This document shows, in pieces, positions 5,729 to 7,329 of a stretch of 64,000 bases of DNA (positions within the stretch are counted from its first letter, which is position 1; the number at the start of each line of letters is the position of its first letter). The stretch is from Escherichia phage vB_EcoM-673R5. The position numbers and the translations under genes were made by a program. The notes beneath the pieces were generated by a model, which did no database searches, was not told where the DNA came from, and saw only the letters and a list, made by a program, of their open reading frames with translations. Location: sequence record ON470615.2. One strand, 5' to 3'.

Positions 5729-5899
5729 ATTAGTGTAATATCGCCTCAATGAATCGTGATTTATAGAGCGATTTAGCTGTTAGCCGCGACAGGCGCGGCG
5801 GTAAGCATGGCTGGGCCTAGTCCTCCCAGACAAACCACCGAGTTGCCAGGTTGGCCATGCGCCTAAGTGGCAACGCCGAAGTGCGTTACGAGCTTCCAG

Positions 5900-5926
5900 T
5901 TTGCCCATCTTCGGGTGGGCGTTTTT
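5900..5926 (+). terminator. candidate intrinsic terminator after dmt
   Basis: Hairpin gcccatc-ttcg-ggtgggc followed by a T-run. Confidence 0.4.
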
Positions 5927-6391
5927 TCAGGGTTTTCGTCATGGTTAGCGACTTTGCGGCGGTTTAGAAACTGACCATTAAAGTAAATGCAAACGATGAT
6001 CTGATGATGGTAGCGGCCTAAGAAGCCAGATGCCACGGGGTATGAGTCGTCCCCGTCAAAAAATCGACCGCAGAGTGTCCCCGTCTGTGTATTAGGGAAC
6101 GGGGAGGCACAACAGGTAAGGGCGCTGGTGTGATTAACCAGATGAACGAGAAGGGGCCATCTGTTGGTCAGCGTCCTTTCCTGTTGCGTTTTCTTTTCAG
6201 CGTAACAGCGGTGCTTAACAGCACTTTGGGTACAGTTCCACGAATTTACGGGTATATCCCGTCATGCTGAAGGCGCTAATCACGCTGGAAGCCAGGGTTG
6301 TGCATCCCCTGTTACCGAATTGCAGCCAGGGCGCGGTGCGCCGAAAAGCATACGGAGGTGGAAGCCCTCGCCGGAGACGTACCCGGCAAGT

Positions 6392-6467
6392 GATGGTGTA
6401 GCTCAGCGGTTAGAGCGGTTGACTGTTAATCAACGGGTCGATGGTTCAAATCCATCCACCATCGCCA
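6392..6467 (+). tRNA. tRNA-Asn (anticodon GTT)
   Basis: Hand-folded cloverleaf: acceptor GATGGTG/CACCATC, D-arm GCTCAGCGGTTAGAGC, anticodon loop CTGTTAA, T-arm GATGG-TTCAAAT-CCATC, encoded CCA. Confidence 0.85.
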
Positions 6468-6469
6468 AT

Positions 6470-6545
6470 GCCGGTTTAGCTCAGTTGGTAGAGCGCCTGC
6501 CTTGTAAGCAGGATGTCAGCGGTTCGAGTCCGTTAATCGGCACCA
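6470..6545 (+). tRNA. tRNA-Thr (anticodon TGT)
   Basis: Acceptor GCCGGTT/AATCGGC, D-arm GCTCAGTTGGTAGAGC, anticodon loop CTTGTAA, T-loop TTCGAGT, encoded CCA. Starts 2 nt after tRNA-Asn. Confidence 0.85.
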
Positions 6546-6553
6546 GCACAACA

Positions 6554-6633
6554 GGTAAGGGTATTTTGCGACGTCGGAGATCGCCGAGCTTGGCAGAGGG
6601 TTCGAATCCCTACGAAGTACCCTTACCGTTGTG
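6554..6633 (+). ncRNA. tRNA-like hairpin with T-loop-like GGTTCGAATCC; possible tRNA remnant or small stable RNA
   Basis: 10-bp stem ggtaagggta/tacccttacc enclosing agagGGTTCGAATCCct. No complete cloverleaf could be folded. Confidence 0.25.
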
Positions 6634-7329
6634 ATGAAGTGCAGCTCTTTGAAGCAACCAGAAGATAAGCATCTGGCTTCACAACATAAACCGCAGGAAC
6701 GACCAATAAACGGTAGTCCGTATGGAGAACACCCCGTTGAGGAAGAGGCCTGGCCGGAACCGTAACCGGCACTACAACGTTGAGAACACTGGCGTAACGG
6801 GGTCATATCCCAATCTACGAATAAATGTTGCGTTGCAGCGTGACAACCAGTGTTCTCAACATTGTGGTGAATGCACAGGCTGATGTGCCGCAACTACAGT
6901 AGTGCGCGCTTTGCGGGGCTTGCTACAACCCTGTGTCGGAGTTCAGCACCGACCATCACAGTTTGATTCTCTGGCATGAGCATAACGCTGAAATAAGTCC
7001 AGTCTGGTGCGGCCCGATCACCCGCCGTTAGCTCCACGAAACGGAGCACGTAACAGGTAAGAGCATTCTCCTGTAACGGGTTCATATCCCAATCTACAGG
7101 TCCACCAGGAATGCTCTTTCCGTTGCGGTGAATGCGGCTAAGCGCACGCGGGGAAATGGTTATATCTGTCCATTATTTCTCCTTATTTCCCCGTCCACGG
7201 TGGATAACCAGCTAAAGGACACCGGGAAGCACCCGGCACCGCAACCTTATTTCCCAACCAGTAATGAGGTTAATAAATGCTCGGCATTCTCAAAAGAAAT
7301 TCCGCAAAGCGGCTGGCGGAGTCAAGAAG

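Follow-up and report, generated by a model that had tools for sequence, protein, structure and literature searches.

A hairpin family common to the ban leader of phage P1 and the late leader of lambda: candidate RNA-processing elements

Introduction

The RNase III sites of phage T7 and the stalks of 16S and 23S rRNA are well-known long processing duplexes. RNase III of Escherichia coli has weak sequence requirements, and its substrates need about two helical turns of duplex (at least 20 base pairs, bp). Repeated 3'-end units are a known feature downstream of E. coli tyrT. For the late leader of phage lambda, RNase III processing was reportedly the subject of a 1988 paper by Daniels, Subbarao, Blattner and Lozeron (Virology 167:568), to judge by its title as cited in PMC7547250. 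Here we describe positions 5729-7260 of a 64,000-nucleotide (nt) stretch of Escherichia phage vB_EcoM-673R5 (ON470615.2; the window), which hold four long hairpins of a family that also occurs in the lambda late leader.

The 1,552 bases around these hairpins are 99.9% identical to phage P1, and the annotation of P1 (NC_005856, our L001; other loci used for comparison likewise carry L numbers) was transferred to the window, with window position equal to the L001 coordinate + 4228. In the P1 reference record the stretch is flanked by dmt and tciA. It forms the untranslated leader of the ban operon, which is repressed by C1 and transcribed rightward from Pban; downstream on the + strand follow, in this order, tciA, tciB, tciC, trnI and ban. 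The family hairpins are a real and fairly ordinary kind of feature, homologous to the lambda hairpin, and the annotation of this part of P1 as two genes is a mislabelling.

Results

Four hairpins of one family in the ban leader

Four long copies of a hairpin led by ACAGGTAAG are present in the P1 ban leader:

HP1, 6097..6198, + strand: core CACAACAGGUAAGGG...CCUUUCCUGUUG at 6109-6187; z = -4.4
HP2, 6547..6633, + strand: 1 nt past the CCA of the tRNA-Thr gene trnT; stem of about 21 bp with a bulged A; z = -5.5
HP3, 6770..6869, + strand: unbulged class, CAACGUUGAGAACACUGG / CCAGUGUUCUCAACAUUG; z = -7.5
HP4, 7046..7129, + strand: GUAACAGGUAAGAGCAUUC / GAAUGCUCUUUCCGUUGCG; bulged A and U/U mismatch, as in lambda; z = -5.8

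The folding z-scores were computed against dinucleotide shuffles. Counted from the base, HP1 to HP4 have 19-24 paired positions, and in all four the RNA of the + strand folds more stably than that of the - strand, by 6.7-13 kcal/mol (13 in HP1). The extra A of HP1 is paired, and the stem is extended outward via GGGGAGG and a U-rich tail; across 20 orthologous natural variants none of the 31 predicted pairs is lost, G.U and G-C often alternate, and one pair shows a compensatory change. The tip of HP2 holds AGGGUUCGAAUCCCU (6597-6611), the only canonical T-loop sequence among the four hairpins, and the HP2 stem recurs with at least five unrelated tips in P7, L002, L006, L007 and L008. HP3 shows compensatory differences from the hairpins that follow tRNA-Ser in SSU5-like plasmids. 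The position of HP4 is occupied in P7 and D6 by a tRNA-Ser(UGA) gene with its own hairpin.

Several of these elements had been noticed in a first-pass annotation made from the sequence alone. The motif ACAGGTAAGRG, reported there three times, occurs exactly at 6112, 6551 and 7053 (not at 6108, 6549 and 7050, so that the coordinates were off by 2-4 nt), and each copy does open a long hairpin, namely HP1, HP2 and HP4. When one mismatch is allowed, the window contains six matches, a number reached by none of 100 window shuffles; the three one-mismatch matches elsewhere (15745, 15818 and 36601) are not hairpins. A perfect 14-bp inverted repeat, also listed, turned out to be the core of 23-nt arms that are 91% complementary (6770-6792 / 6847-6869) and form the fourth hairpin, HP3. 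The near-duplicate segment described there is 25 nt long, 96% identical between its copies (6794-6818 and 7073-7097), and forms the tips of HP3 and HP4. The T-loop-like piece, GGTTCGAATCC, indeed lies within a hairpin (6599-6609, in HP2), the stem of which has about 21 bp and not the 10 bp proposed. The fourth family member, the tie to lambda and other phages, and an STnc100-like domain (below) had been overlooked.

In SJ46 (L005 2270-2294), a deletion joins HP3 to HP4 via the shared 25-nt repeat. This fusion, an example of recombination between paralogous hairpins, removes all of the annotated open reading frame (ORF) upl and the start of another, plp.

HP3 and HP4 are each preceded by a short relic: 6754-6772 resembles the 3' end of trnT, and 6935-6958 consists of a T-arm-like stem and CAUCA. 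Because of these relics, and because HP4 stands in place of the tRNA-Ser unit of P7 and D6, HP1, HP3 and HP4 look like orphaned copies of a tRNA-plus-hairpin unit.

Conservation of the stems as RNA

The stems were compared in two ways. In the arm test, which uses no folding program, each 5' arm was aligned to the reverse complement of its own 3' arm; 45 of the mismatches correspond to wobble pairs on the + strand and 16 to wobble pairs on the - strand. In the stem test, 21 distinct hairpins were placed in an explicit register of 19 stem positions (399 cells), of which 363 are Watson-Crick pairs (91%), 24 are G.U and 6 are A.C. When the 3' arm is slid by 1-3 nt, pairing falls to approximately 25%. 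Covariation, which the first-pass annotation had suggested looking for, is seen as compensatory changes: two or more Watson-Crick pair types occur at 11 of the 19 positions in the 21 copies, for example G-C and U-A at position 8 or A-U and G-C at position 10. Position 17 is a U.G pair in 14/21 hairpins, with unrelated tips.

The hairpins lie on the same strand as Pban with its operator Op72, the tRNA genes trnA and trnT, tciABC, trnI and ban. Together, the wobble bias, the compensatory changes and the greater stability of the + strand fold argue for selection on RNA structure in the sense transcript, and not on a DNA palindrome. From these sequence comparisons, the data indicate that the stems are under selection as + strand RNA.

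Hairpin position behind tRNAs and variability of the tips

The family consensus has the base CACAAC(A)GGUAAGRGCAUUG paired with CAGUGCYCUUWCCGUUGUG, and a stem of 19-24 bp, in most cases with a bulged A and a U.G wobble; the sequence of the tip is arbitrary. The related loci are modular tRNA arrays with the order Asn-Thr (P1), Asn-Tyr-Thr, Arg-Tyr-Thr...Ser or Asn-Thr...Ser(UGA) (P7 and D6), and similar tRNA sets are found in SSU5-like phage-plasmids of E. albertii and Klebsiella. At every related locus, the last tRNA of the block is followed, 0-2 nt past its CCA, by a hairpin with the base CACAAC(A)GGTAAGRG...CYCTTACCGTTGTG and an unrelated interior; trnT alone is followed by at least five different interiors.

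In a pairing-based count over 132 loci, a hairpin begins within 4 nt of the terminal tRNA-Thr in 105/105 cases, a figure that is biased since the loci were collected with the hairpin pattern, and within 4 nt of tRNA-Ser(tga) in 39/39 cases. The hairpins behind tRNA-Ser do not fit the collection pattern, and the latter count is therefore an independent check. At the same loci no hairpin follows the separately placed tRNA-Met(cat)/Ile2 (trnI; 0/86), and essentially none follows internal tRNAs.

The tRNA-Ser(UGA) of these arrays, which is not found in P1, is 87 nt long (P7 L004 2769-2855, D6 L003 2607-2693, L007 3072-3158, L008 2723-2809). Its best score is with the model for tRNA-Sec (46.6 and 41.1 bits; threshold of 47). 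According to the D6 record, tRNAscan-SE assigned no amino acid; on visual inspection it is a type II tRNA, and its D-loop is short.

Tips were compared among 56 distinct main-class hairpins, in which 28 tip types were distinguished. Across types, the arms show 89% identity (20 of the 34 arm bases are fixed by the search pattern, and the free part is approximately 73% identical) and the 3' flanks 62%. The tips are 50% identical, which equals the shuffled value, with stems and flanks conserved. Behind the hairpin there is always a conserved single-stranded GUGAAUGC / AUGAAGUGC. Only two of the 28 tip types contain a T-loop-like motif, so the T-loop belongs to particular tips and not to the family, and one HP4 variant has lost its mini-hairpin.

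Several identities for the hairpins were considered and rejected. No match of the P1 tips to the rest of the window exceeds 11 nt, which speaks against antisense regulators of P1 genes. ARAGORN finds only trnA, trnT and trnI, and Rfam gives no tRNA-clan match to HP1-HP4 at E<=10; given this lack of model support and the rarity of the T-loop among the tips, the hairpins are not degenerate tRNAs. Rfam returned nothing else credible for them, either at the gathering threshold or at E<=10, the microRNA-like and plastid matches being hairpin noise. A Y RNA-like match (YrlA, RF02553) is sub-threshold (25.6 against 69 bits) and spans the two real tRNAs rather than a hairpin. Intrinsic terminators are ruled out as HP2-HP4 have no U-tract, and the U-rich tail of HP1 is C-rich in relatives and pairs with upstream G's.

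Distribution of the family in lambdoid phages and Enterobacterales

Outside P1, the family is represented in the late leader of lambda, among phage-plasmids (P7, D6 and the SSU5-like group) and in the prophages of over 15 enterobacterial genera. When viral contigs were scanned with a pattern, more than 120 loci were recovered; they hold 23 distinct hairpins, and several lie outside P1-like phages. The lambdoid members are placed directly behind tR', the terminator of the late promoter. The lambda copy (approximately 44,788-44,863) begins 6 nt past the U-tract of tR', overlaps the annotated 'orf-64', and is the only duplex of the late leader that is longer than the 15-bp stem of tR'. The arms common to the P1 and lambda hairpins are CACAACAGGUAAGAGCAUU / (A/G)UGCUCUUUCCGUUG(U/C)G.

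The lambda 'orf-64' itself (L132 822-1016; lambda 44,621-44,815) extends over the 6S RNA/tR' terminator and also covers the 5' arm of this hairpin; it is likely another ORF call over structured non-coding RNA.

Of 5,426 complete E. coli genomes, 450 contain the lambda-type sequence of 161 nt, which is unannotated in them. Neither DLP12 nor Qin, cryptic prophages of E. coli K-12, holds a family member, and RNase III datasets from K-12 were therefore set aside. A scan of one genome per species gave 95 matches. Filtering separated 27 genuine hairpins from 21 copies identical to that of lambda and from 49 chance matches, where approximately 67 would be expected. The genuine hairpins come from Serratia, Pectobacterium, Rahnella, Erwinia, Pantoea, Kluyvera, Citrobacter, Klebsiella, Enterobacter and other Enterobacterales, usually downstream of an intrinsic terminator, of an IsrJ-type terminated small RNA (sRNA), or of a small stem-loop followed by GCAC.

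The 21 species-representative assemblies with a 71-nt hairpin identical to that of lambda are L140, L142, L152, L156, L160, L169, L170, L175, L176, L183, L184, L188, L200, L202, L206, L211, L214, L218, L223, L225 and L226. Those with a listed title belong to unrelated taxa (Pseudomonas, Psychrobacter, Oceanobacillus, Bradyrhizobium, Kitasatospora and others), often as short contigs of about 1x coverage, and this looks like contamination of the assemblies with lambda DNA. In Enterobacter pasteurii (L192 4281-4357), an IsrJ match above threshold (51.7 bits) ends 14 nt before the family hairpin; the order, a short terminated sRNA and then the hairpin, is that of lambda 6S/tR'.

The interior of the P7 hairpin behind tRNA-Ser, also found after the lambda hairpin, is 85% identical to the tRNA-Ser(tga) trailer of virulent rV5-like phages, where this trailer lies inside a different inverted repeat within an Arg-Tyr-Ser-Thr-Ile2 array. 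The virulent Vequintavirus MaxTheCat (L232 216-1028) carries the tRNA set Arg-UCU, Tyr, Ser-UGA, Thr-UGU and Ile2, as in P1-like and SSU5-like arrays, together with the trailer module known from P7 and the lambda late leader. Its positions 685-783, annotated as 'tRNA-Lys/OTHER/???', form an aberrant tRNA-like gene of 99 nt with a 4-base anticodon call.

A literature search with sequence strings of the hairpins returned no relevant paper. No description of the family, of its position behind tRNAs or of its variable tips was found in the searchable literature, a scope that does not extend to the 2004 P1 genome paper, the 1988 lambda paper or the review by Casjens and Hendrix.

The annotated reading frames plp and upl

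Two ORFs are annotated in NC_005856 on the strand opposite to the hairpins:

plp, 6516..6893, - strand: annotated ORF of 125 aa with a TTG start; judged not to be a gene
upl, 6894..7085, - strand: annotated ORF of 63 aa; judged probably not to be a gene

It could be argued that the minus strand encodes Plp, a putative lipoprotein, and Upl as annotated, and that the hairpins are incidental: the frames exist and were annotated with predicted promoters, and Upl matches two PHROG families. We regard this as extremely improbable. The product of plp has no match in Pfam or PHROG, and the last ten codons of the frame correspond to the 3' end of trnT read in reverse complement. The frame is broken in 6/9 relatives examined (in-frame stops in L002, L011 and L006, split frames in P7 and L010, truncation in SJ46). 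The PHROG matches of Upl are only to families that cover P1-like ORF calls. Moreover, upl is absent from P7, D6 and SJ46, and where it is kept, six of the seven distinct substitutions are nonsynonymous and one is synonymous, distributed 3:3:1 over the codon positions. The annotation of P7, from the same laboratory, leaves out both frames, and RefSeq shows no gene at their position in most P1-like plasmids, as far as its incomplete gene table goes. On these comparative grounds we conclude that plp is no gene, and the same very probably holds for upl. The first-pass annotation had seen no convincing ORF in the region; the reference annotation disagrees, and the family, conservation and substitution analyses bear the earlier view out.

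Organisation of the ban leader

The ban leader is a mosaic of RNA modules, comprising a short terminated RNA, two tRNAs, tRNA relics, a domain resembling STnc100/PasD, and HP1-HP4. In addition to the hairpins, the following features were located:

5696..5741, + strand: Pban promoters P2ban and P1ban, overlapping with the bivalent C1 operator Op72 (palindrome 5710-5741); from transferred annotation and an inverted-repeat search
5742..5928, + strand: promoter-proximal leader, including the annotated 'dicF-like region' (5836-5937), with an intrinsic terminator at its end; from annotation and terminator prediction
5931..6096, + strand: conserved non-coding module with a small stem-loop (6079-6104) at its end, just before HP1; from relatives L092 and L043
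6392..6467, + strand: trnA, tRNA-Asn(GUU); ARAGORN, Rfam 74.5 bits
6470..6545, + strand: trnT, tRNA-Thr(UGU); ARAGORN, Rfam 72.9 bits
6754..6772, + strand: probable relic of a tRNA-Thr 3' end (CCGGAACCGUAACCGGCAC; compare P7 trnT ...CCGUUAACCGGCACCA), directly 5' of HP3; by direct sequence comparison
6866..7045, + strand: spacer module common to the lambdoid late leader L029, with a T-arm-like stem-loop and CAUCA at 6935-6958; from the downstream sequence of L029
7124..7243, + strand: structured domain resembling STnc100/PasD, directly upstream of tciA; Rfam RF02076 33.4 bits, E 6.8e-5, fold z = -3.2

The two tandem tRNAs named in the first-pass annotation are thus confirmed by both programs.

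A canonical intrinsic terminator, the sole terminator prediction in the leader, lies approximately 190 nt downstream of Pban (stem 5902-5921 followed by a T6 run). With this terminator, the P1 layout of promoter, short terminated RNA, hairpins with tRNAs, and genes mirrors the order pR'-6S-tR'-hairpin of lambda. The 'dicF-like' label of 5836-5937 is rejected, because Rfam finds no DicF match there even at E<=10. A related version of the 5931-6096 module precedes hairpins in other phage types, and L007 and L010 match P1 at positions 6849-6960.

The IncY plasmid NZ_CP148508 (L009 1172-2500) has a solo TnpB element of approximately 1.3 kb (RNA-guided endonuclease family) inserted between positions 5967 and 5968, that is, between the terminator and HP1; the fetched stretch of L009 also has no tRNA genes. 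A kinship of HP1 with TnpB omega-RNA was considered and rejected, as the element is a mere insertion upstream of HP1. Further downstream, between trnI (7976-8051, anticodon CAU, annotated tRNA-Ile2) and ban, lies a conserved structured stretch of another kind (8052-8330). The window also holds a known feature of the P1 immI region, the C4 antisense RNA (33158-33245; Rfam 75.9 bits), in agreement with the identification as P1.

A domain related to STnc100

The match of 7124-7243 to RF02076 covers model positions 31-147 only and stays below the gathering score of 47; the P7 orthologue reaches 43 bits. A full-length STnc100 scores 102 bits in L185, where the sRNA lies approximately 140 nt downstream of the hairpin. 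By sequence comparison, 7124-7243 is a partial STnc100 homologue only. The closing helix, the CACCGGGAGGCACCCGGCACC hairpin and a similar genomic neighbourhood are common to this domain and STnc100/PasD; unlike STnc100, the P1 domain is missing the first 30 nt and the 3' terminator and continues into tciA. HP1-HP4 do not belong to STnc100. The closing helix of the domain (7124-7130 with 7237-7243) overlaps the 3' base of HP4, so that the two structures must form alternately or in sequence. STnc100 is related to PasD (Zhu, Shabalina & Storz 2026 preprint).

Discussion

We lean, with modest confidence, towards the view that HP1-HP4 are RNA-processing hairpins of the ban transcript that are cut by RNase III. 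Upon derepression of the operon, the long ban transcript would fold into HP1-HP4, and the double-strand-specific RNase III of the host would cut both arms of the hairpins. These cuts would split the tRNA block from the downstream tciA-ban RNA. The 5' ends of the tRNAs would be made by RNase P, and their short 3' trailers would be trimmed by exonucleases. Each RNA segment would thereby gain base-paired ends and a stability of its own. We infer the cleavage and its consequences from the length and imperfect-duplex geometry of the hairpins, the analogy with T7 and rRNA stalks, and the lambda late-leader precedent. The 19-24 paired positions of HP1-HP4 are in the range of RNase III hairpins, the hairpins lie on the transcribed strand, and their arms are common to the lambda hairpin. 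No other duplex in the lambda late leader exceeds the tR' stem in length, which makes the hairpin the obvious candidate for the RNase III sites of 1988, and we take it that the two are probably the same. In a P1vir RNA-seq preprint, trnA, tciA and ban went up in a delta-hfq host, and trnI, tciB and tciC went down. Such opposite changes within one operon would fit, weakly and circumstantially, a transcript cut into separately fated segments.

Some observations weigh against this proposal. The stem is nearly invariant across genera, and together with the fixed bulge and wobble this exceeds what simple recognition by RNase III needs. A pure processing role also does not explain why the tips have diverged to random-level similarity while stems and flanks are conserved. 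The late-leader tRNAs of phage 933W lack a family hairpin, as does P1 trnI, so the hairpin is not a general requirement for phage tRNA maturation, and the perfect count behind tRNA-Thr carries the collection bias noted above. Among the options offered in the first-pass annotation, 'processing signals of a tRNA operon' nevertheless fits best, in the sense of conserved + strand structures 3' of the last tRNA or terminator in a polycistronic leader. Its 'degenerate tRNAs' can be kept only for the relics at 6754-6772 and 6935-6958 and for the T-loop-like piece in the HP2 tip; its suggested tRNA and Rfam scan recovered trnA and trnT and matched no tRNA model to the hairpins. Its third option, processed small RNAs, is possible.

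The hairpins might instead act without RNase III, as protective stem-loops at 5' or 3' ends, as an anti-Rho structure in an untranslated leader of 1.5-2.5 kb, or as a substrate of RNase P. Segments would then be stabilised after cuts by RNase P or RNase E, or a cut by RNase P at the 5' edge of the hairpin would free the CCA end of the tRNA. The start of the hairpin 0-2 nt after the CCA, where a cut would release a nearly mature tRNA, is in line with this, as is the long, untranslated and densely structured leader; the single-stranded GUGAAUGC / AUGAAGUGC behind the hairpin could be an RNase E site, and P1 is known to use RNase P on a non-tRNA substrate, the C4 RNA. However, good hairpin substrates of RNase P have a 3' RCCA, which does not follow the family hairpins, generic structure needs no conserved stem sequence, bulge or wobble, and the lambda precedent reportedly points to RNase III. 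We consider this explanation rather unlikely. It is unlikely, too, that the stem is a scaffold and the tip a payload, with tip RNAs of 40-70 nt, some of them tRNA-like, released as small regulators or decoys that differ by phage. Such a role would account for 28 unrelated tip types on an 89%-identical stem, for the T-arm-like elements in some tips (P1 HP2, HP3 and HP4; L006, L180 and L187) and for the known prophage sRNAs among the adjoining modules (STnc100/PasD and IsrJ). Yet the tips have no match above 11 nt elsewhere in the window, T-loop-like motifs are confined to 2/28 tip types, the mini-hairpin is lost from one HP4 variant, and no small RNA from the tips is reported in the literature searched. 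A more specific form of this idea, which we rate as decidedly unlikely, is a 'cassette holder': a near-invariant 19-bp stem, read by a processing or recombination machinery, would present an exchangeable tip of 27-51 nt, by which temperate enterobacterial phages express or swap a diverse set of short RNAs (regulators, sponges or tRNA-fragment decoys) from derepressed leaders. If true, it would be a natural bacterial counterpart of a pri-miRNA-like scaffold.

A further possibility is that the hairpins act as DNA, being recombination junctions (linker, attC-like or MITE-like, after miniature inverted-repeat transposable elements) at which tRNA and other cassettes are exchanged, with RNA folding as a by-product. 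Modules are indeed shuffled at the hairpin arms among P1, P7, D6, L002, L010 and lambda, the SJ46 deletion joins HP3 to HP4 through a 25-nt repeat, and the short basal helix, extrahelical base and variable tip loosely recall integron attC sites. Against this stands the excess of G.U over A.C (24:6), which with the conserved U.G wobble is strand-specific and sensible only for + strand RNA, and the orientation of the hairpins is always that of transcription. A hairpin arm precedes each of the 356 occurrences of three conserved 3' flanks (356/356), so that there are no empty sites, and no target-site duplications or direct repeats were found in the hairpin flanks. We know of no integron integrase IntI in the gene sets of P1 and lambda. 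We therefore find it very unlikely that the hairpins work at the DNA level. MITEs and other insertion-derived inverted repeats are rejected on the missing empty sites and direct repeats and on the strand-specific wobble bias. A true attC site is rejected as well: GCACAAC / GUUGUGA fits RYYYAAC / GTTRRRY at only 6/7 and 5/7 positions, the basal helix thus being off consensus at one position of the 5' arm and two of the 3' arm, and the wobble bias is that of RNA.

Processing by RNase III remains the explanation that we favour for HP1-HP4, and the family has consequences beyond it. Two genes are annotated in a stretch of P1 where comparison with relatives supports neither, and the conserved RNA elements lack annotation in P1 and lambda as well as in hundreds of E. 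coli genomes. One hairpin family connects the ban leader of P1 with the late leader of lambda and with phage-plasmid tRNA arrays, and it gives a testable model for how tRNAs are separated from mRNAs in long leaders. The combination of conserved stems with unrelated tips is an odd evolutionary pattern that may reveal how leaders exchange modules. Major concepts are left unchanged; what is corrected is the annotation of two model phages.

The closest known system is the RNase III site of the lambda late leader, and sequence comparison indicates that the P1 hairpins are homologous to the lambda hairpin. The latter has the same stem sequence as HP4, with the same bulged A, U/U mismatch and U.G wobble, and both lie in the untranslated leader of a regulated polycistronic operon. 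Lambda has one copy and no tRNA, whereas P1 has four copies, one of which abuts a tRNA. The T7 RNase III sites (R0.3, R1.1 and others) and the 16S/23S rRNA stalks are likewise long imperfect duplexes between functional units of polycistronic RNA, and like the P1 hairpins they are paralogous within a genome, contain internal mismatches and leave structured product ends. They have no sequence similarity to the P1 family, and the T7 sites separate mRNAs, whereas the family hairpins trail tRNAs or terminators. Also unlike the T7 sites, the P1 family combines conserved stems with fully unrelated tips across phages.

Two other systems resemble the P1 locus in part. E. coli tyrT and other tRNA operons contain tandem fragments of tRNA 3' ends with trailer, similar to the P1 relics at 6754-6772 and 6935-6958; such repeats, in contrast to those of P1, are not built around a long conserved hairpin and are not common to phages. 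Integron attC sites, like the P1 hairpins, are imperfect inverted repeats behind a functional unit, with a short basal helix that ends in AAC/GTT, an extrahelical base and a variable tip. The P1 hairpins differ from them in having no integron integrase or attI, a strand-specific G.U pattern, and a hairpin at every site.

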